Notes: generated by a model from the sequence alone, not told the origin. A stretch of DNA of 64,000 bases from Candidatus Poribacteria bacterium (GCA_965214095.1 OZ243938.1:5088001-5152000); one strand, 5' to 3'; positions 21,753 through 35,624 are shown, counted from the stretch's first letter. Numbers and translations: made by a program.

Positions 21753-24002
21753 TCATTTATCTGTAATATCCCAAATGAGTACCGTGCCATCCAAACTGCC
21801 ACTCGCAAGCGTGCTTCCATCAGAACTATATGCAAGGGAAGTTAACCCGAACTGCCCACTAAAGGACGAAATGATTTGAAATAAATTCATGTCCCAAAAG
21901 TGGATAGAACCATCACCATTCCCATTTGCCAGTATTTTTCCATCAGGACTGTAAACGAGTGAGGATACCTTACTTCGACCTCGCGCAGTGATATTTGGTG
22001 GGTCATCAATTTCCCTTGGCAGACTCGGAGACGGGTCAAAAAGATCGTTTCCAATAAGAGAAACTTTGTGCTTACCTGTATTTGGATCCCATAAATGGAT
22101 TGAACCATCTCCACATCCACTTGCAAGTGTTCTCCCATCAGGACTGAAGGTGACAGTCTGTATTCTATCTGTATGTCCTTCAAGCGTAGTAATAAGTTTC
22201 CGATTACGTACATCCCATAGACATATAGTTTTATCCTTACTACCACTTGCAGCTATACTTCCATCTGGACTCAAAGCAACTGAAGTGATTTGGTCTGTAT
22301 GTCCCTTTAGTTTTGCTTTCTGGGGACCAATGAAAAATCCCAAAACTCGTTGGAATATTGAATCTGATTCTGCAGCCTTTGCATCCCAAATTCGTAGCAT
22401 TCCATCTGAACCACCTGTTACAAAGATATTGCCTTCGGTATTATACGATATTCCACCACCATGTGATATATGATAACTATTCTTATCTATTGCTTTACTA
22501 TGTCCTTTTTGAGTCTTCTGATATGCGCCTGTTTCCGCGTTCCAAAAGAAGATTTCTGCTTTTCCTGCAGGACGCATATTTAGGCTTGCTAACGTTTTTC
22601 CGTGTGGAACAAATGTCAGAGATTGAATATATAATTGATACGGATACCCATCACAAGTAGTATTGAGTTTTCCATTTACCACATCCCATAGCCTAATCTT
22701 CTCTAGATGATGACCACTTGCGAGAATATTTCCCTCATTATTAAATGCAATAGAACTTACTTCACCGTTATGGCGTTTAATGATATGACGTAGTCCAGAT
22801 TTTTTTGTATTTTCTTTATCTATTTTCCATAAGTAAATACGTGTTTCTTCATTATTCATAGAACTTCGTGCAGCAAGCGTGCGTCCATCTGGACTAAACA
22901 TTAGATAATAGAAGTGTCCATTTTCTCTAAATAAAAATTTGGGTTCTCCATCCTCAGTATTCCAAAAGATTATACCACCATTTGTTGATACAGCGAGTGT
23001 GCGTCCATCTGGACTGAATTTAATTGATGTAACTCTTTTTGTTGGATAATTCACTATCTTAGGTATGTTATTAGCTATAGCCAGGATTTTTAAATTTCGT
23101 GGATCGTTGGCCAGTGTATTCTTCAGTTGACCTGTCTGTGTATCCCATAACTGCACCTTATAATCATCGATTCGTGCCGTAGCGAGTGTCTGCCCATCTG
23201 GTGATATTGTAAATGGATGTCGATAATGACCTTCAAGTTCAATTCTCATTTGCAACTTACCAGTATTTGAATCCCAGAACTTCGCTTCATTTTTAGAAAA
23301 ACAGAATAGAGCACTCCCATCGTTGATAAAAACAATGTTATTAGCACCTGTTGTATCTTCTAATTTTGCTATAAAACTTCCAGTTTCAATGTCCCATACC
23401 AGAACTTCTTTTTTTTTGCTACTTACTATAGTTTTTCTATTCGGACTAAACATCACACTGGAAACTCTTTTGTGGGGTGTTGTAATCACACGGTGTTCCC
23501 CATTTTCAATGTTCCATAGCCTTATTTTGTTCGAATAATCTGTACTTGCAAGCATTTTTCCATCAGAACTAAAACTGACTGATAAAACTCTATTGGTATG
23601 ACCCTCAAGGGTGGTTTTGATTTGGTTGGAATTTAAATCCCATATATCAATCTTATGCTTTCGCATATTTGCACAGAGTTGTAAATCTGGACTTAGAATG
23701 ATATTATCTGTCAAATATCCATTTATTTTTGATAAACTTATCTCTTTTCCTGTCATAACATCGTATAACCAGACACCAATAGAAGTTATCACAGCAAGTT
23801 TCGTATTGTCAGATGAAAATTGATATGAATTTCCCTTTCCTATAGTCGTGAGATGGCTTTCCAGGTTTGCCATTTTGCCCTTACCAAGTCTCAACTTTGC
23901 ACCTTTTGGCAATTCCCATAGTGTGTAGTCATCCGAATATGAGTATGAAAGAAATGTCAAAGTTAATAGAGATATTGCAATCATTGCATGAATCGTTCTC
24001 AT
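21753..24002 (-). CDS. Secreted WD40-repeat protein
   Basis: Signal peptide; WELPKGAKLRLGKG cap; many GH..V.S..FSPDG.LAS..D..I.LWD repeats. Confidence 0.92.
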   Translation of the reverse strand: MRTIHAMIAISLLTLTFLSYSYSDDYTLWELPKGAKLRLGKGKMANLESHLTTIGKGNSYQFSSDNTKLAVITSIGVWLYDVMTGKEISLSKINGYLTDNIILSPDLQLCANMRKHKIDIWDLNSNQIKTTLEGHTNRVLSVSFSSDGKMLASTDYSNKIRLWNIENGEHRVITTPHKRVSSVMFSPNRKTIVSSKKKEVLVWDIETGSFIAKLEDTTGANNIVFINDGSALFCFSKNEAKFWDSNTGKLQMRIELEGHYRHPFTISPDGQTLATARIDDYKVQLWDTQTGQLKNTLANDPRNLKILAIANNIPKIVNYPTKRVTSIKFSPDGRTLAVSTNGGIIFWNTEDGEPKFLFRENGHFYYLMFSPDGRTLAARSSMNNEETRIYLWKIDKENTKKSGLRHIIKRHNGEVSSIAFNNEGNILASGHHLEKIRLWDVVNGKLNTTCDGYPYQLYIQSLTFVPHGKTLASLNMRPAGKAEIFFWNAETGAYQKTQKGHSKAIDKNSYHISHGGGISYNTEGNIFVTGGSDGMLRIWDAKAAESDSIFQRVLGFFIGPQKAKLKGHTDQITSVALSPDGSIAASGSKDKTICLWDVRNRKLITTLEGHTDRIQTVTFSPDGRTLASGCGDGSIHLWDPNTGKHKVSLIGNDLFDPSPSLPREIDDPPNITARGRSKVSSLVYSPDGKILANGNGDGSIHFWDMNLFQIISSFSGQFGLTSLAYSSDGSTLASGSLDGTVLIWDITDK

Positions 24003-27315: not shown

Positions 27316-30300
27316 TTACATTCCTCCACGCGGACTCCATTGTACCATATAATCGGAAGGCACTTCGCGGATGAACATAGACGTAGAAAGCTCACGATCA
27401 CCATATCGGTAGATTGTAGATGACAGAAACAGTTGCTTCTGAGCACGAGTCATACCTACGTAAAAAAGCCGACGTTCCTCTTCAAGCTCAGCATCAGTGG
27501 TGTCCTGTTTCCACATCGGAAAACTCCCTTCCTCCATTCCGATGATTATGACAACAGGAAATTCCGTGCCTTTTGCAGCATGAAGTGTCATTAATGTAAT
27601 CTGTTCTGTGTCATCATCTATCTCATCATAATTCGTCAGTAATTTCTGAAAACCCAAGAACTCTAATAGGCTGTTCCCTTGATCTGACTTCAGATATTGC
27701 AAAAGTAGAGTCCGAAACTTTGATTTAGTTTCTATCCAAGCAGTGTCCTCTTGCATAATAGGAACATCAGTCTCTTCTAACTCTTTAAAGTAAGCTTCAA
27801 CTTGTTCCTCTTCTGTTGACTCAAAGGGGAGATCTTCATGTATCTGTTGAGAACCTTCCTTGACCACACGTATAGCAGCGTTTAAAAATGCCCTCTCTTC
27901 TGTAATATTCTTGTCGTTTTTAACTGAAATATCTGTTTTGTCAAGAATACCAAGACCAACAAACGGCAATAAATCGGTAAGTGATTGCACTTCTCGCTTC
28001 TTTAGGTCAATCCTTATCAATTCCTTGAAAATTTGTCTGTTTACTTCAACATCTTCCATAGCACGATGTAAAGTTTTGTGTTCAATTCCAAATTTCTCAG
28101 CAAGTGATTCAATACCACATCGTTGACGAGGAAATAGTCTACGTGCGGTGACAAGTGTATCGTAGTAGGGATTTGTCAGATTCTGATCTAAACAATCCTG
28201 TAATCCACGTTCCAGAATTGGGTTGTCATACTGCGCGACATTATGTCCAATTAGGATACGATCTTGAATGAAACTATAGAATTTCGGGAGAACCATCTCA
28301 ATACTCGGTGCGTCCTTTACATCCTCACTACTTATACCGTGAACTTTCGTAACTGACGGTGGTATGTATCCACCGGGTGGTTTCACTAAGCGAGAAAACT
28401 TCTCAACTTCATTGCCAATTACATTAAGCCGTTTCGCTGCAATCTCAACAATATTTGCGCGTCTGATATCAACACCTGTAGTTTCTAAATCATAAATCAC
28501 CATATCAGACATATTCGGTGTTTCAAATCTACTCAATAACCGTTGGCAAAGTTTTAATGCGGCGATACAACGTATCTTACCTGAACCAAGTTGAATCACA
28601 TCTGACTGTTCAGAGATGGTAGTACCGATAAGAATTGATCTCGTCTCTATACCCTTTTCTCCCAGTTCTCCAAAGTCGCCAATAAGTATATTAACTGCAT
28701 TTCTGTTGAGTAGCTGTTCACTGTCACCATCTGAGGTTTCATTTTTGGGTAAATATTGGACTTCTACATTCTGATCAAGATAAGATTGTAGTGTTTGACT
28801 AATTATATATGCTGAACAATATTCATCTATGCCATAACTTGCAGTGATCTGAATTTGTTCACCACGATCAAGAACACTATACAGAACATCTTGGGCCAAA
28901 CCCAAATTTGATAAATCCGACTTATTCTCAATAGCAGCTAACTCTTTGTTGCGGTATGGACTTCGTATCATGTCTAATTTTTCAAATAGAATATTGACAA
29001 TTTTATCTATTTTTTTATCTTCAATTTCATCTTCCAATGTTGCCAATTGTTCCCAAAAACTACTGATGTTCTTTCGTGTTAATGGACCGACATCCTCTGG
29101 ATACTGTTCAATATTCCGTAGGAGTTCTTCCAATTCTAATTTTTCACGTTTTGCTAACCACTTCAGTCGCACCCAAGTAAGATCGTCAACCCTTTTTTCA
29201 GGAAAGTTAATTGCGATTTCTAAGTCACGTGGAAGTCGCCACTGAATATAACAGAGATATGAAAGAATACCCTTCAGTCTTTCGTCATCAAAGGAATTGG
29301 TTGGTCGTATCCGTTGAAATTTTATTTTAGATCGTATCAATTCTTCTGTCAGAACATCCGCGAGTCTGTGTGTCCTGTAAAATACGGCAATGTCGCGATA
29401 TGAAACATTCCGTTCACTAATCAATTTACTGATAATCCTGATAATAGTGCGTGCTTCCTCAACAGGAGTCATAAATGTATAGTGAAATATATCCCGTCCT
29501 TCATCTTTGTGGGATATAAGACTGTGCTGAGCCTGTCGCAAAGGATTATTCGCAATTACTTCTTCTGCAGCGCGTAGAATCGTTTCACTACATCTATAAT
29601 GATCGTCTAATTCAACTGTATATGGAGAGTAATTAGTTTTGAAATCGTCTATGAACTGCGGATTTGACCCGCGCCAACTGTAGATAGACTGGTCAGCATC
29701 CGCAACAACCATCAGATTGTTCTCTGGTGGAGCAGTAAGGAAACGAAGAAGTTGGTATTGAACTTCGTTCACATCATGATATTCGTCAACAAGGATGTGT
29801 GAAATCTTTTGATGGTATTCCTGCTGTACTTCAGCAACTTGTTCAAAAAGTATCACCGTTCTTATCAACAGATCATCAAAATCAAAGGCATTGTATTCAT
29901 TAAGTTTGCTATGATAGGCATTGAAGGCATTTACTATATTCGCTTCAGCATCAGGATCGTCTATTTCCGCGATATAATCCTGTTTAATCTCTATATTATT
30001 CTGAGCATAATCAAGTTTGCATTTTGCGTCGCTGATTGCATTCCGTAGTAACCACACAGGATAATCATTTGGGTGAAGATTCAACTCCTTTATGACTTCT
30101 ACGAGTATTTCATCCTGTATTTCTTGGTCAAAAATAGCAAAGTTTTCACTCAGACCGATGTGATGTACGTGACTTCTGAGCACCTTCACACAAAAAGCAT
30201 GAAATGTGGAAACATTAATATTTGAACCGTGCGGTTCTCCAATTTCATTGTTGACACGATCACGCATCTCTTGTGCGGCTTTATTCGTAAAAGTAATCGC

Positions 30301-30465
30301 AAGGATATTACCAGGCTTGATTCCGTGATGACGAATTAGGTAAGCAATACGGTGCGTAATGACTTTTGTTTTACCCGTACCAGGACCTGCAATTACAAGT
30401 ATCGGTCCAGTGTTGTGTTTTACTGCTTCTGTCTGTTTTTCATTTAAATCGTGGAGAATGTTCAT
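27316..30465 (-). CDS. UvrD/PcrA-type SF1A helicase with inserted degenerate RecJ-DHH and DEDDh exonuclease domains
   Basis: AGPGTGKT, TFTNKAA, TFH, VDEYHD, DADQSIYSWRG, YR, TLHAAKGTEF, EERRLFYVGMTRA; insert has DLETTG, GHN..YD and HRAMED. Confidence 0.9.
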   Translation of the reverse strand: MNILHDLNEKQTEAVKHNTGPILVIAGPGTGKTKVITHRIAYLIRHHGIKPGNILAITFTNKAAQEMRDRVNNEIGEPHGSNINVSTFHAFCVKVLRSHVHHIGLSENFAIFDQEIQDEILVEVIKELNLHPNDYPVWLLRNAISDAKCKLDYAQNNIEIKQDYIAEIDDPDAEANIVNAFNAYHSKLNEYNAFDFDDLLIRTVILFEQVAEVQQEYHQKISHILVDEYHDVNEVQYQLLRFLTAPPENNLMVVADADQSIYSWRGSNPQFIDDFKTNYSPYTVELDDHYRCSETILRAAEEVIANNPLRQAQHSLISHKDEGRDIFHYTFMTPVEEARTIIRIISKLISERNVSYRDIAVFYRTHRLADVLTEELIRSKIKFQRIRPTNSFDDERLKGILSYLCYIQWRLPRDLEIAINFPEKRVDDLTWVRLKWLAKREKLELEELLRNIEQYPEDVGPLTRKNISSFWEQLATLEDEIEDKKIDKIVNILFEKLDMIRSPYRNKELAAIENKSDLSNLGLAQDVLYSVLDRGEQIQITASYGIDEYCSAYIISQTLQSYLDQNVEVQYLPKNETSDGDSEQLLNRNAVNILIGDFGELGEKGIETRSILIGTTISEQSDVIQLGSGKIRCIAALKLCQRLLSRFETPNMSDMVIYDLETTGVDIRRANIVEIAAKRLNVIGNEVEKFSRLVKPPGGYIPPSVTKVHGISSEDVKDAPSIEMVLPKFYSFIQDRILIGHNVAQYDNPILERGLQDCLDQNLTNPYYDTLVTARRLFPRQRCGIESLAEKFGIEHKTLHRAMEDVEVNRQIFKELIRIDLKKREVQSLTDLLPFVGLGILDKTDISVKNDKNITEERAFLNAAIRVVKEGSQQIHEDLPFESTEEEQVEAYFKELEETDVPIMQEDTAWIETKSKFRTLLLQYLKSDQGNSLLEFLGFQKLLTNYDEIDDDTEQITLMTLHAAKGTEFPVVIIIGMEEGSFPMWKQDTTDAELEEERRLFYVGMTRAQKQLFLSSTIYRYGDRELSTSMFIREVPSDYMVQWSPRGGM

Positions 30466-31741: not shown

Positions 31742-31790
31742 AACTACCAATTAATGATAGAAAATCCGTGTCAAATTCTTGGAAAAACAC

Positions 31791-33674
31791 ATGCCAAAAA
31801 TCAAAATACTCTCAGCCGATGTGGCAAATAAAATTGCTGCAGGTGAAGTCGTTGAACGACCTGCCTCGGTTGTCAAAGAACTCATAGAAAACGCCGTTGA
31901 TGCTGATAGCACCAGCATCCGTGTTGAAATACGCGCAGGTGGAAAACGACTCATACGTGTCACTGATAACGGCACAGGTATGGAACGTGAGGACGCACTC
32001 CTCGCATTAGAACGTCATGCCACAAGTAAGGTCAACCGGATTGAAGACCTTGAAAATATACAAACTTTCGGGTTTCGTGGTGAAGCGTTGGCAAGTATAG
32101 CATCTGTCTCTAACTTTGAACTGCTTACGCGTACTGCTGATGCAATACAAGGCACAAAAATCAATGTAGATAGTGGTGTTTTCCGTTCAGTTGAAGAAAG
32201 CGGATGTTCTCCAGGAACACATATTTCTATCAACAATCTATTCCACAATGTTCCGGCTCGTTTGAAATTTCTCAAAACCGACACCACCGAGATGAACCAT
32301 ATCACCAAGCAGGTAACATGGGCTGCATTAGCACATCCCAAAATACATTTCTTCTTATCACATAACGGCAAGACTGTACTTGATGTGCGAGCATGTGATT
32401 CTAATCTGGAACGGGCACGCCTGATATATGGCAAAGAATTTGCTGACAATCTGATTGAATTTGGTGAGGAATTACCCGATTTCAAACTCTCTGGTTTACT
32501 CGGAAAACCTGAATTTACGAAGCCGAATCGGGATAATCAACTCTTTTTTATGAACCAACGTCCGATCCGAAGTCCTATGATTGGGGCTGCACTAAAAGAA
32601 GCACTCGGTGCAACTGTTCAGTCCGGACGACATGCAGTGGCAATTCTCTTTATGACACTTGAACCTGATACGGTTGATGTCAACGTCCATCCAGCAAAGA
32701 TTGAAGTGCGTTTCAAAAATGAGCGGACGATATTCACCGGTATTGTCAAGATGATCCGCAGCGTGATCAACAAAGAGAAGTTCATACCCAAGATTGAGAC
32801 ATCTACAGAGACACAACACACTCCTATTGAAAAGAGTAATATAGAAACAAAAACACCAATATCATCTAAACCATTCACAAGACCACGACCCACTATTGTC
32901 CCTGAAATAGAAACAGAGACACCTGATGCCACTAAGACAGAGGAAAAGGCAACAAAGAGAGTTGAGACCAAAAGAATAGAGACATTACCAACTGAAAATG
33001 TTGAAACTGAACCGAAACACGAAGAAACAAAGACTGTTGTGCAACCCTCTCAACAGACAATTCCAGAAGGAGCAACGCTCAAACTCCTTGACTTTGAGAA
33101 TGTTGAACTCAAAACAAACCTATTCAAAACATATATTGTCGCTGAAGGAGAAGATAGGGTTTTCTTTATTGACCAGCACGTTGCAGCAGAACGTGTGTTA
33201 TATGAGAGATTTGTGAACCAGTTAAAATCAGACGGTATCCCAGTGCAAGGCTTATTACTGCCTGTGACTGTAGAAGTAACACCACAACAGCTTGCTATAC
33301 TCAAGGTTCATGCAGAACTGTTCAGCAACGTCGGCTTTGAATTGGAGGAATTTGGTGCAAATACAATACTGATTCGCGCTATACCCGCACCTCTGCCAAC
33401 ACGAACAGCAGCACAGACTATCACAGACCTACTGGACAAACTCCCTGACCAACGGCATGAAGAAGTAGAATTGCCCAAGGCAATTGATGATGCATTGATT
33501 ACACTTGCTTGTCGTTCAGCAGTGAAAGCAGGGGATACCTTGGACTCCAAAGAGATGATAAATCTAATCCGAGAGTTATCTGAGGCGAAACTTCCTTTCA
33601 ACTGTCCGCATTCTCGACCTATCATTATTGAAATGGGACGCGATGAATTGGAACGAAGATTTCATCGCTCATAA
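31791..33674 (+). CDS. mutL: DNA mismatch repair endonuclease MutL
   Basis: IAAGEVVERPASVVKEL.EN, GFRGEAL, DVNVHPAK, DQHVAAER...YE, QGLLLP clamp motif, ACR, CPHSRP. Confidence 0.97.
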   Translation: MPKIKILSADVANKIAAGEVVERPASVVKELIENAVDADSTSIRVEIRAGGKRLIRVTDNGTGMEREDALLALERHATSKVNRIEDLENIQTFGFRGEALASIASVSNFELLTRTADAIQGTKINVDSGVFRSVEESGCSPGTHISINNLFHNVPARLKFLKTDTTEMNHITKQVTWAALAHPKIHFFLSHNGKTVLDVRACDSNLERARLIYGKEFADNLIEFGEELPDFKLSGLLGKPEFTKPNRDNQLFFMNQRPIRSPMIGAALKEALGATVQSGRHAVAILFMTLEPDTVDVNVHPAKIEVRFKNERTIFTGIVKMIRSVINKEKFIPKIETSTETQHTPIEKSNIETKTPISSKPFTRPRPTIVPEIETETPDATKTEEKATKRVETKRIETLPTENVETEPKHEETKTVVQPSQQTIPEGATLKLLDFENVELKTNLFKTYIVAEGEDRVFFIDQHVAAERVLYERFVNQLKSDGIPVQGLLLPVTVEVTPQQLAILKVHAELFSNVGFELEEFGANTILIRAIPAPLPTRTAAQTITDLLDKLPDQRHEEVELPKAIDDALITLACRSAVKAGDTLDSKEMINLIRELSEAKLPFNCPHSRPIIIEMGRDELERRFHRS

Positions 33675-33713: not shown

Positions 33714-35624
33714 ATGAAAACAACACCACTGTACCTTCTAATAACCTGCCTACTATTTGCCATATTTCTCCCAATTGTTTCTTCACAAGAATATAATACT
33801 TGGGGGTTACCAGAAGGTGCAATTGCGCGACTGGGAAAAAGTGAAATCACTGGAAATGTTGCCTTCTCACCAGATGGTAATCGGTTGGCTGTTGCAAGTT
33901 CAATCGGAATTTGGATTTATGATGTACGTCCCGGTGAAGAAACTGAACTGGAACTTATCACTGGACATACGCTTGATGTTACGACACTTGCTTATTCACC
34001 CGATAGTAGCATACTCGCGAGTGGTAGTAGAGATGGATCAATACGACTGTGGGATGCTCTTAGCGGCAAACAAATTACTTTGTACCAAGGAGAAAGGGAA
34101 GAAGTTATCACACTTGTAATTTCAACAGATGGGAAAATGCTTGCAAGTGGACATCATAATTGGTCTAATAATGAACACCAAGTAAGACTATGGAACTTAC
34201 AAACAAAAGAACTCTTAACAACAATAGATGACCATACAAACTACATCTCATCTTTAGCATTTTCACCTGATGGTAAAACACTTGCTACAGGGAGTAGGGA
34301 CAAGACTGTAAGATTATGGGACACACAAACAGGTGAACACAAATCTACACTTGTAGATCATAAAATTTCTATATCTACGCCTATATCTACGGTAGTGTAT
34401 TCCCCTGATGGGAAGACACTTACGACTGTAAGTCCACTTGATACTGTTTTGCAGTGGGATACAGAAACAGGAACTTATGATACAACATTATTCAAACGTG
34501 TTGGACAGATTCATTCACTTGCATTTTCTCCAGATGGCAGCACGATAGCAATAGAGCACATCAATTATGTGAAGTTGATTAATTCTGAAACAGGAAAACT
34601 AGAAGCTGTCTTCAGAGGACACAAAAAAACAATCGAATCCATTGCTTTTTCTCCTGACGGAAACACACTCGCTACTGCTGATTCTGATAATATCATAATG
34701 CTATGGGATACACAAACTCGAAAGCGCAGAACTACCATCAAAGGACATACTTCAAGGGTTCAATGTTTAACCTATTCACCTGATGGGAAAACTATAGCTT
34801 CAGGCAGCTTTAAAGGACTCGGTTTCCTATGGGATGCTCAGACTGGAAAACATAAAGCAACGCTCATAAGAAGATATAGCCTTGACATAACAGGAATAAC
34901 ATATTCACCTGATGGAAAAACAATTGCTACATGTAGTGGTGTTGGCACTGTTGAACTATGGGAAGAACGAACACGTGCGTTTCAGGTACGTAGCAGAAAA
35001 CCGAAATCAACACTTATTGAGCTGTCCACGGAACTACATTGTATTGCTTATTCACCTGATGGAAAAACAATTGCGATAGGAGACGATAAAGGGGATATAA
35101 GTTTATTGAATGCAGATAAAAGTGAAATAATAACTACTCTCTCAGGACACGTAAGAAGGATCAATTCACTTGCATTCGCACCTGATGGATTTACACTTGC
35201 AAGTGCCAGTAGTGATGGAACTGTCAGAATGTGGGATATACAATCTGAGGGCATCATCGCATCACCAGGAGGAAATAGAAGAGGGTCCTATGCTGTAGCG
35301 TATTCTCCTGATGGAAACTTAGTAGCAAGCGCAGGTGATGACAATAATATCCAACTGTGGGATGTACATAGTCAAACTACAAAGAGAATAATTAGAACAC
35401 CGCAAAACCAAGTTACATGTATTGCTTTCTCTCCGAATGGCGTATTTTTCGCATCCAGCAGTCGTGATGGTAGCATTGAATTATGGAGCACGCAATCAGG
35501 TGAACATATTTCATCATTCAAAGCGAATGATGGGTGGATATCAGCAATTGCATTCTCTCCAAATGGTGATACATTAGCAAGTAGCAGTTCTGACGGCACT
35601 ATTCTCTTGTGGAAACTACGTTGA
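33714..35624 (+). CDS. Secreted WD40-repeat protein
   Basis: Signal peptide; WGLPEGAIARLGK cap; about 13-14 WD repeats. Confidence 0.92.
   Translation: MKTTPLYLLITCLLFAIFLPIVSSQEYNTWGLPEGAIARLGKSEITGNVAFSPDGNRLAVASSIGIWIYDVRPGEETELELITGHTLDVTTLAYSPDSSILASGSRDGSIRLWDALSGKQITLYQGEREEVITLVISTDGKMLASGHHNWSNNEHQVRLWNLQTKELLTTIDDHTNYISSLAFSPDGKTLATGSRDKTVRLWDTQTGEHKSTLVDHKISISTPISTVVYSPDGKTLTTVSPLDTVLQWDTETGTYDTTLFKRVGQIHSLAFSPDGSTIAIEHINYVKLINSETGKLEAVFRGHKKTIESIAFSPDGNTLATADSDNIIMLWDTQTRKRRTTIKGHTSRVQCLTYSPDGKTIASGSFKGLGFLWDAQTGKHKATLIRRYSLDITGITYSPDGKTIATCSGVGTVELWEERTRAFQVRSRKPKSTLIELSTELHCIAYSPDGKTIAIGDDKGDISLLNADKSEIITTLSGHVRRINSLAFAPDGFTLASASSDGTVRMWDIQSEGIIASPGGNRRGSYAVAYSPDGNLVASAGDDNNIQLWDVHSQTTKRIIRTPQNQVTCIAFSPNGVFFASSSRDGSIELWSTQSGEHISSFKANDGWISAIAFSPNGDTLASSSSDGTILLWKLR

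Follow-up and report, generated by a model that had tools for sequence, protein, structure and literature searches.

Fusions of a helicase with a nuclease are central to DNA repair (for example, RecBCD/AddAB, DinG and WRN), and canonical helicases of the PcrA/UvrD type are marked by a GIG motif that contacts the duplex and by a C-terminal extension. The 2B subdomain governs autoinhibition and partner activation of UvrD-type helicases (PMC13646824, partial text). The nuclease drRecJ is described as holding its metal through D79, D81, D83, D135, H159 and D223, and Cdc45 as having lost its metal ligands (both in a partial text of PMC4846377). Here we analyse a gene at positions 27316-30465 (minus strand) of a 64,000-nucleotide stretch of DNA from Candidatus Poribacteria bacterium (GCA_965214095.1 OZ243938.1:5088001-5152000; the whole stretch is referred to as the window). 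On the basis of its sequence and those of its relatives, the gene encodes a UvrD-type helicase whose 2B subdomain holds an inactivated RecJ domain, which itself holds an intact exonuclease of the proofreading type. Helicase–nuclease fusions, nested DEDDh exonucleases (PolC) and dead RecJ folds (Cdc45) are known separately, whereas their combination inside 2B was not found in the searched literature; the same search, which left supplements and subscription journals outside, gave no UvrD with a nuclease inside 2B and no two-level nesting through a dead nuclease. Two papers that combine UvrD, DEDDh and 2B proved to concern unrelated defence systems.

The gene is a single uninterrupted open reading frame (ORF) of 1049 amino acids with an even GC content along its length (0.35-0.41; Table 1). 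Pfam divides its product into UvrD-helicase (residues 7-279; 276.2 bits against a gathering cut-off of 23), UvrD_C, which is split across residues 285-1016 (144 bits against 25.6), and RNase_T (residues 656-813). In agreement with the initial annotation, the motifs of superfamily 1A (SF1A) helicases (that is, Walker A and motifs II, III, IV, V and VI) are all present, and re-translation placed them where they had been reported; each of K32, D227, E228, Q259, R265, R291 and R1007 is either invariant or conserved to at least 90% (conservation counts refer to an alignment of 55 relatives unless another number is given). The same annotation had remarked on DEYHD in place of DEYQD in motif II, which is correct for the window protein but is no trait of the family: the fourth residue is histidine in 29 and glutamine in 26 of the 55, a lineage-specific difference that rules DEYHD out as a family signature. 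The NCBIfam equivalog cut-offs were missed for PcrA (504.5 against 911.2), Rep (408.3 against 951.45) and UvrD (372.3 against 1144.45), and by these comparisons the protein belongs to the UvrD family as a paralogue of PcrA/UvrD and is orthologous to none of PcrA, UvrD and Rep.

Alignment to PcrA (PDB 1pjr) pairs residues 3-498 with PcrA 8-489 and residues 888-1040 with PcrA 488-646, and alignment to the genome's own 728-residue PcrA pairs residues 2-454 with 4-448 (38% identity) and residues 911-1045 with 505-638. The segment left over amounts to approximately 390-450 residues (about 499-887), lies between motifs IV and V and replaces a short stretch of 2B, so the several hundred extra residues first noticed at this point are borne out by both PcrA alignments. 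In UvrD1 numbering the alignment breaks at 515/569, and because the 2B domain of Mycobacterium smegmatis UvrD1 comprises amino acids 404-585 (PMC13646824, partial text), we place the insert inside 2B. The GIG motif is not kept, PcrA KRGIGAST being aligned to EKRVDDLT in the window protein; at this position (residues 426-428) the family reads [ILV]-D-[ED], with D427 in 45 of the 55. The C-terminal extension of PcrA is likewise absent from the window protein, which stops at the equivalent of PcrA residue 646.

The join between helicase and insert is not an assembly chimera. The same full-length architecture, in many cases on a single contig, occurs in 159 of 176 Poribacteria genomes (124 of the 133 of good quality and 26 of 31 genera). 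An identical sequence lies within one contig of a sequencing run, which is possibly the source run itself, and a 2418-nucleotide contig of a relative that is approximately 90% identical, from an RNA library of another study, is unbroken over 27332-29749 and spans both insert junctions. The gene of a relative is covered by contigs from two metatranscriptome libraries, in which carry-over of DNA is possible, and we do not claim expression on this basis.

Inside the insert, residues 656-813 are matched by the RNase_T profile (PF00929) over positions 1-164 of its 164, with 103.8 bits against a cut-off of 24. The best solved match is a PolC-type exonuclease (PDB 2p1j, 3.8e-22), and the closest named and solved relatives are PolC-type proofreading domains, DnaQ and DEDD-UvrC fusions. 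The match spans window positions 28027-28500, where an intact DnaQ-like domain had been proposed at about 28500-28020, and the catalytic residues D659, E661, D747, H800 and D805 are all present, each at least 90% conserved. Mean pairwise identity is 40-46% in the motor domains, 41% in the DEDDh domain, 24-26% in the segments that flank it and 22-31% in the rest of 2B. Judged by this conservation, the exonuclease active site is intact, its DEDDh catalytic residues being conserved as strongly as the motor.

In its own genome, the helicase insert is the sole match to PF00929, and the same holds almost throughout the phylum: a match is present in 158 of 176 genomes, nearly always exactly one, and it invariably lies in an ORF of approximately 1000-1150 amino acids. 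The 18 genomes without a match, four complete genomes of one genus among them, are the 17 that lack the helicase insert, with G017 as the exception. No stand-alone gene of the dnaQ, orn, rnt or exoX type was detected with the PF00929 model in the 176 genomes. That the sole DnaQ/RNase T-type domain detected in the phylum sits in a helicase prompts one to ask how Poribacteria trim DNA in the 3'-5' direction and proofread it.

The segments on either side of the exonuclease (hereafter the N-flank and the C-flank) were first proposed to follow the motif order of RecJ with the catalytic residues lost, and programs give the same motif correspondences. A profile of 31 N-flank sequences, including members from Chloroflexota, has RecJ chains as its top three matches among 177,635 PDB sequences (1ir6, E=0.0018; 8y30, E=0.0019; 2zxo, E=0.0035), with 5x4i at 0.063 and 5f54 at 0.46. 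In the alignment to 8y30, profile positions 29-143 fall on RecJ residues 57-211 and reach the helix that precedes the exonuclease. A narrower hidden Markov model (HMM) of the flank, built from the phylum alone, gave five weak PDB matches, of which four belong to the DHH superfamily (two archaeal RecJ-like proteins, Cdc45 and 7bhi), all at motif I. Local hhalign of the 55-sequence family against 24 RecJ proteins of the phylum matched the N-flank with Prob 86% and E=5.1e-6, the C-flank with Prob 44% and E=2.3e-4 (RecJ columns 189-224) and, as a second colinear match, the helix with E=0.047; the DEDDh domain falls between RecJ columns 186 and 189. Reversed profiles gave E=0.54 and 0.86, and the best of 40 column shuffles E=0.18 and 0.12. 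The similarity is specifically to RecJ, as the NrnA-like DHH protein of the genome reaches only E~0.5 with hhalign. The flanks thus do show profile similarity to the DHH fold, the point on which the proposal could have failed, and by these profiles they are homologous to the RecJ DHH domain, yet they lack the functional marks of the DHH family.

The loss of these marks is extensive. The motif I ligand positions of the window protein are occupied by S543, G545 and D547 and the position of D223 by K843, and the DHH triad is missing from it. Among the 55 relatives, the ligand is kept at the equivalents of D79, D81, D83, D135, H159 and D223 in 5, 4, 41, 3, 0 and 4 sequences, respectively, the motif II column being poorly aligned, and the triad is found in the N-flank of none of 203 helicase-context proteins, one fragment among which keeps NDVDG at motif I. 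DHHA1 (PF02272, at E<=1) and the RecJ OB fold (PF17768) have no Pfam match in the window protein, and the C-flank reverts to 2B sequence after approximately 60 residues. These counts uphold the reported loss of the RecJ catalytic residues and indicate that the DHH active site is destroyed in the helicase lineage, with one of the six metal ligands commonly kept. Given that the N-flank is never lost (it is kept in 55 of 55 relatives and is at least 107 amino acids long), we argue that it has a structural role.

A likely parent of the insert was found by searching 1.84 billion cluster representatives with it. The 22,249 matches at E<=0.001 are mostly plain exonucleases; 42 of 45 long matches scanned combine UvrD-helicase, RNase_T and UvrD_C, and among shorter matches are eight complete RecJ proteins of 730-761 amino acids with RNase_T nested in the DHH domain (RecJ::DEDDh). 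These have DHH at about residues 80-206 (profile positions 1-104 of 125), RNase_T at about 220-375, then DHHA1 and RecJ_OB, and their motifs I-IV are intact, with the exonuclease lodged between the helix downstream of the DHH strand and the strand of motif IV. A further search from one of them listed 120 clusters, 53 of which hold both DHH and RNase_T. Such proteins are annotated 'single-stranded-DNA-specific exonuclease RecJ' and come from Elusimicrobiota/Endomicrobiia, Brevinematales/Spirochaetes and some Firmicutes; no paper on a RecJ with a DEDD insert was found in the searched literature. Some RecJs of approximately 710 amino acids span the same region without a PF00929 match, which may mean a degenerate insert. 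RecJ::DEDDh proteins, whose DEDDh exonuclease is intact, may be bidirectional (that is, dual-polarity) single-strand exonucleases, and they constitute a second uncharacterised enzyme class.

The whole-insert family profile aligns to the eight RecJ::DEDDh proteins without a break (Prob 100%, E=2.8e-62 over 346 columns, with family columns 6-356 on RecJ::DEDDh columns 47-430), and the flanks alone also match (N-flank, E=4.9e-8 over 132 columns; C-flank, E=6e-6). Helicase-flank HMMs match 13 of 18 RecJ::DEDDh rows. The spacing from the helix 'KL' to D[LIV]ETTG is 19 residues in the window protein, P0214 and P0217, and that from HRA/HKA (Exo III) to the strand-5 motif is 32 residues in the helicase insert versus 31 in RecJ::DEDDh. 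The capture of a RecJ-DEDDh module into 2B, as originally suggested, accordingly has a counterpart in existing proteins with RNase_T at the same point of RecJ; the recJ of the genome itself was a further place to look and carries no DEDDh insertion. From the evidence of the junctions we take the nested arrangements in the helicase and in RecJ to be homologous, and the insert is likely to share its ancestry with the N-terminal portion of a RecJ variant in which DEDDh already lay inside the DHH domain, with RecJ::DEDDh as the likely parent form.

We consider it probable, taking the sequence comparisons as a whole, that the protein is a helicase coupled to 3'-5' excision by a DEDDh exonuclease that is embedded in a dead RecJ domain and derived from a RecJ::DEDDh-type insert. 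The motor would translocate 3'-to-5' on single-stranded DNA as SF1A enzymes do, with the 3' end of the strand that it holds trailing behind it. A DEDDh enzyme requires a free 3'-OH, and the exonuclease may remove nucleotides from a free 3' end that is exposed, or kept single-stranded, by unwinding; the likeliest substrate would be the trailing 3' tail of the strand on which the motor is loaded, or a 3' flap or end where the DNA is nicked or gapped. The dead DHH domain could act as a rigid adaptor and perhaps as a guide for the single strand (compare the catalytically dead Cdc45), and the module in 2B together with the loss of GIG may have altered autoinhibition and substrate engagement. Excision in Escherichia coli uses UvrD and ExoI/ExoX, and one polypeptide would here cover the job of these separate enzymes. 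The genome also encodes a canonical PcrA with a C-terminal extension, an AddA-like helicase and the large subunit of ExoVII, and an ExoI C-domain was not found in it. A role in DNA repair or recombination beside the canonical PcrA, in the form of nick- or gap-directed excision or end processing, is likely.

A more specific version can be envisioned, in which the protein is a self-contained strand-excision machine that works where MutL nicks: the motor would load at the nick, DEDDh would degrade the unwound 3' end and the dead RecJ domain would couple the two as a Cdc45-like guide, the whole being a domesticated form of a bidirectional RecJ::DEDDh that serves mismatch- or nick-directed excision in Poribacteria and Chloroflexota. 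We regard this version as decidedly doubtful, although if it is true, the family supplies both the helicase and the exonuclease for such excision in these two phyla.

Several results weigh against helicase-coupled excision by a captured RecJ::DEDDh module. At the level of the flanks, Pfam DHH (PF01368) has no match in the whole protein at E<=1 or in any of 22 flank sequences at E<=10, the phylum-only C-flank HMM finds no RecJ in the PDB but chance matches only (E>0.6), a BLASTP comparison of the insert with the RecJ of the same genome is insignificant (E=0.075) though in register at motif I, and a single-sequence hhalign comparison reaches only Prob 2.8%. At the level of the exonuclease, a FastTree tree of 230 domains unites 110 of the 112 exonucleases borne by helicases in a single clade (support 0.93) and puts the RecJ-borne ones in a different clade; the approximately unbiased (AU) test, on 87 rows, rejects the helicase-borne and RecJ-borne exonucleases as one clade (p=0.0023), leaves the 30 helicase-borne rows alone borderline as a clade (p=0.038) and does not reject a clade of the 18 RecJ-borne rows (p=0.88). 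At the level of the genome, the gene is missing from four complete genomes of one genus and must therefore be dispensable. The proximity of mutL, which the initial annotation had taken to fit an excision role, is weak evidence and was set aside: truD and then a divergently oriented mutL lie upstream of the helicase gene in the window, and mutL is within 8 kb in the window and at 4 of 10 loci of the same genus versus none of 12 more distant loci. As these 12 distant loci show no conserved neighbour of any kind, gene order says little.

The trees bear most directly on the possibility that the nesting arose twice, or that the exonuclease was swapped later (that is, that DEDDh entered a permissive DHH loop in two separate events, one in the lineage of RecJ and one in the ancestor of the helicase insert). 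In either case, the insert would not have come as one unit from a RecJ::DEDDh protein. In addition to the separate clades, the window exonuclease scores better against some other architectures (for example, two RNase_T domains with BRCT, E~1e-36) than against RecJ::DEDDh (~1e-24). On the other side, both junctions align gap-free and the linker lengths are near-identical, and the trees are weak: they are quick trees of 163-166 columns with weak deep support (FastTree 0.65-0.89; the quick tree leaves 31 of its 82 branches open), better trees escaped the free search, and the 'other' rows are the nearest matches of each group, which biases against exclusivity. P0124, a fragment of the family, was dropped before the AU tests, and near-identical Poribacteria representatives outside the family alignment were left out of the trees. 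A double origin is on balance unlikely, though worth serious attention; a later exchange of the exonuclease and the descent of other architectures from the same stock are both possible.

Alternatively, the target may be RNA or RNA:DNA hybrids, with DEDDh trimming RNA 3' ends or the RNA of R-loops stripped by the motor. The RNase_T family includes RNases, the Rv2179c-like exoribonuclease model also matches the domain in relatives, and the genome has no other PF00929 domain. We nevertheless find an RNA target very unlikely, given that the domain has DNA exonucleases (PolC-type, DnaQ and DEDD-UvrC) as its closest named and solved relatives, that the host belongs to a DNA helicase family and that the scaffold goes back to RecJ, a nuclease specific for DNA (PMC4846377, partial text).

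A function in defence against phages or plasmids, as a helicase–nuclease similar to GajB of Gabija or as a stand-alone system, is suggested by matches of the PADLOC GajB models and of a CRISPR-associated DEDDh model to the window protein, and by the recurrence of UvrD-family helicases in defence systems (PMC13069673, partial text). The GajB models match the motor here as they match any UvrD-family motor, however, and neither GajA nor another conserved partner was seen in the window or at 12 distant loci. The occurrence of the gene is near-universal and mostly single-copy, appears vertical and housekeeping-like from the genomes compared, and has the housekeeping genes truD and mutL as neighbours in the window, which together make a defence function highly improbable. 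That the flanks are an unrelated Rossmann-like linker that resembles RecJ by chance or convergence is hardly credible: the missing Pfam DHH match and catalytic residues, the insignificant single-sequence comparisons and the empty C-flank search of the PDB would fit it, but RecJ chains head the PDB ranking, the hhalign values of 5e-6 to 5e-8 compare with shuffles at E>=0.12, three colinear segments match, the similarity is to RecJ specifically and not to the NrnA-like DHH protein (E=0.5), and one relative retains NDVDG. Coupling of the helicase to 3'-5' excision through a captured RecJ::DEDDh module remains our preferred reading, and the features on which it depends are collected in Table 1.

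Table 1 Features of the helicase–exonuclease gene in the window, and the RecJ proteins compared with it
Feature	Window position	Strand	Basis
Whole gene: 1049-amino-acid UvrD-family helicase with nested insert	27316..30465	(-)	ORF list, translation, Pfam; stop codon included
Motor domains 1A/1B, residues 7-279	29629..30447	(-)	PF00580, 4.7e-82
Walker A, GPGTGKT	30367-30387	(-)	Re-translated
Motif II, DEYHD	29773-29787	(-)	Re-translated
Motif III, DADQSIYSWRG	29668-29700	(-)	Re-translated
First half of 2A and N-terminal part of 2B, residues 285-498	28972..29613	(-)	Aligned to PcrA 8-489
EKRVDDLT, at the position of the PcrA GIG duplex-binding motif	29176-29199	(-)	PcrA alignment
N-flank, residues 499-655: degenerate RecJ DHH domain, strands 1-4 and next helix	28501..28971	(-)	Flank profile, hhalign
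Motif I remnant, SYGID	28825-28839	(-)	Re-translated
Motif II remnant, NILIGDFG	28669-28692	(-)	Re-translated
Motif III position, SILIGTT	28618-28638	(-)	Re-translated
Predicted DEDDh (DnaQ/RNase T-type) 3'-5' exonuclease domain, residues 656-813	28027..28500	(-)	PF00929, 1.9e-29; PDB 2p1j
Exo I, DLETTG	28474-28491	(-)	Re-translated
Exo II, HNVAQYDN	28222-28245	(-)	Re-translated
Exo III, HRAMED	28051-28068	(-)	Re-translated
C-flank, residues 814-875: RecJ strand 5/motif IV remnant and PL..ENR segment (ITEERAF)	27841..28026	(-)	hhalign
Motif IV remnant, FVGLGILD	27940-27963	(-)	Re-translated
C-terminal part of 2B and second half of 2A, residues 876-1049	27319..27840	(-)	PcrA 488-646, own PcrA 505-638, PF13538
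Motif V, TLHAAKGTEF	27559-27588	(-)	Within residues 876-1049
Motif VI, VGMTRA	27442-27459	(-)	Within residues 876-1049
RecJ::DEDDh proteins: P0214, P0217, P0230, P0198, P0267, P0260, P0247, P0205

The family is already present in databases under a generic name, its Poribacteria members being called 'UvrD-helicase domain-containing protein [Candidatus Poribacteria bacterium]'. More distant members, with 27-36% identity, are named Chloroflexi, Anaerolineae, Herpetosiphonaceae and Thermomicrobiales; the distribution beyond Poribacteria rests on these names of database relatives, and two phyla are established. Two paralogues of the helicase–exonuclease occur in G027 (L048, G027:C1:5352000-5371500), G019, G020 and G023, in tandem in G027 and G020, and the two are approximately 43% and 49% identical to the window protein. 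One protein of 807 amino acids (P0114) shows 78% identity over 71% of the insert and combines a DDE transposase (PF01609) with RNase_T, without helicase domains; an insertion sequence has probably disrupted this copy or become fused to it. An 820-amino-acid frame at G098:C2:890323-891171 was noted together with it.

Other genes of the window and of the phylum deserve brief mention. The MutL of the window (31779-33674, plus strand) contains DQHVAAERVLYE in its C-terminal domain, which resembles the endonuclease motif of MutH-independent MutL. Two WD40-repeat proteins of 749 and 636 amino acids with hydrophobic N-termini (21753-24002, minus strand, and 33714-35624, plus strand) flank the region, and similar WD40-repeat genes recur beside mutL in relatives. 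RecJ proteins of Poribacteria are long, with open frames of approximately 850-910 amino acids (loci L050-L079); the RecJ of the window's own genome (L001, G000:C1:4286026-4289466) has a C-terminal Helicase_C at residues 632-729 of the 762 amino acids read, and in G025 four RecJ-like matches stand in tandem, three of which share a single frame of 1860 amino acids. The window's own genome encodes one more nested helicase–nuclease, a 571-amino-acid UvrD-family helicase (L006:1495-3207; G000:C1, approximately 4358420-4360132) with a GIY-YIG nuclease domain (residues 132-206) nested in its N-terminal helicase domain.

Compared with PcrA, UvrD and Rep, the window protein shares the full motor core and the 1A/1B/2A/2B layout, and it differs in the approximately 390-residue insert in 2B, in [ILV]-D-[ED] at the GIG position and in being without the C-terminal extension. 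With RecJ::DEDDh it shares the nesting of DEDDh in DHH at the same point; those proteins keep the DHH motifs, DHHA1 and RecJ OB and are without a helicase, whereas the helicase insert comprises the DHH part with its ligands lost. From PolC it differs in that the host there is a polymerase and the nesting one level deep rather than two, although in both a DEDDh exonuclease is nested in another domain (PHP in PolC), and the PolC exonucleases are its best solved and NCBIfam matches. AddA/RecB, DinG and WRN likewise unite a DNA motor and a nuclease in one polypeptide, with the nuclease terminal rather than nested; the nuclease of AddA/RecB is of a different fold, and DinG and WRN are SF2 helicases. 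The N-terminal DEDD exonuclease of Gram-positive DinG is among the nearest relatives of the window exonuclease, and exonuclease activity has been described for DinG (PMC12525004 and PMC3270479, partial texts). Set beside these fusions, a nuclease inside the regulatory 2B subdomain would be a new design, and a 2B rebuilt around an exonuclease would provide a natural experiment on what 2B regulation tolerates. A parallel for the scaffold is Cdc45, also a catalytically dead RecJ-type DHH fold that works with a helicase; Cdc45 forms a subunit of its own within a hexameric SF6 helicase (eukaryotic CMG) and retains its C-lobe, whereas the dead domain of the window protein is built into an SF1 monomer and bears an exonuclease that is predicted to be active. 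The family may represent a bacterial example of a RecJ fold that has lost catalysis and serves as a helicase-attached scaffold, parallel to Cdc45.

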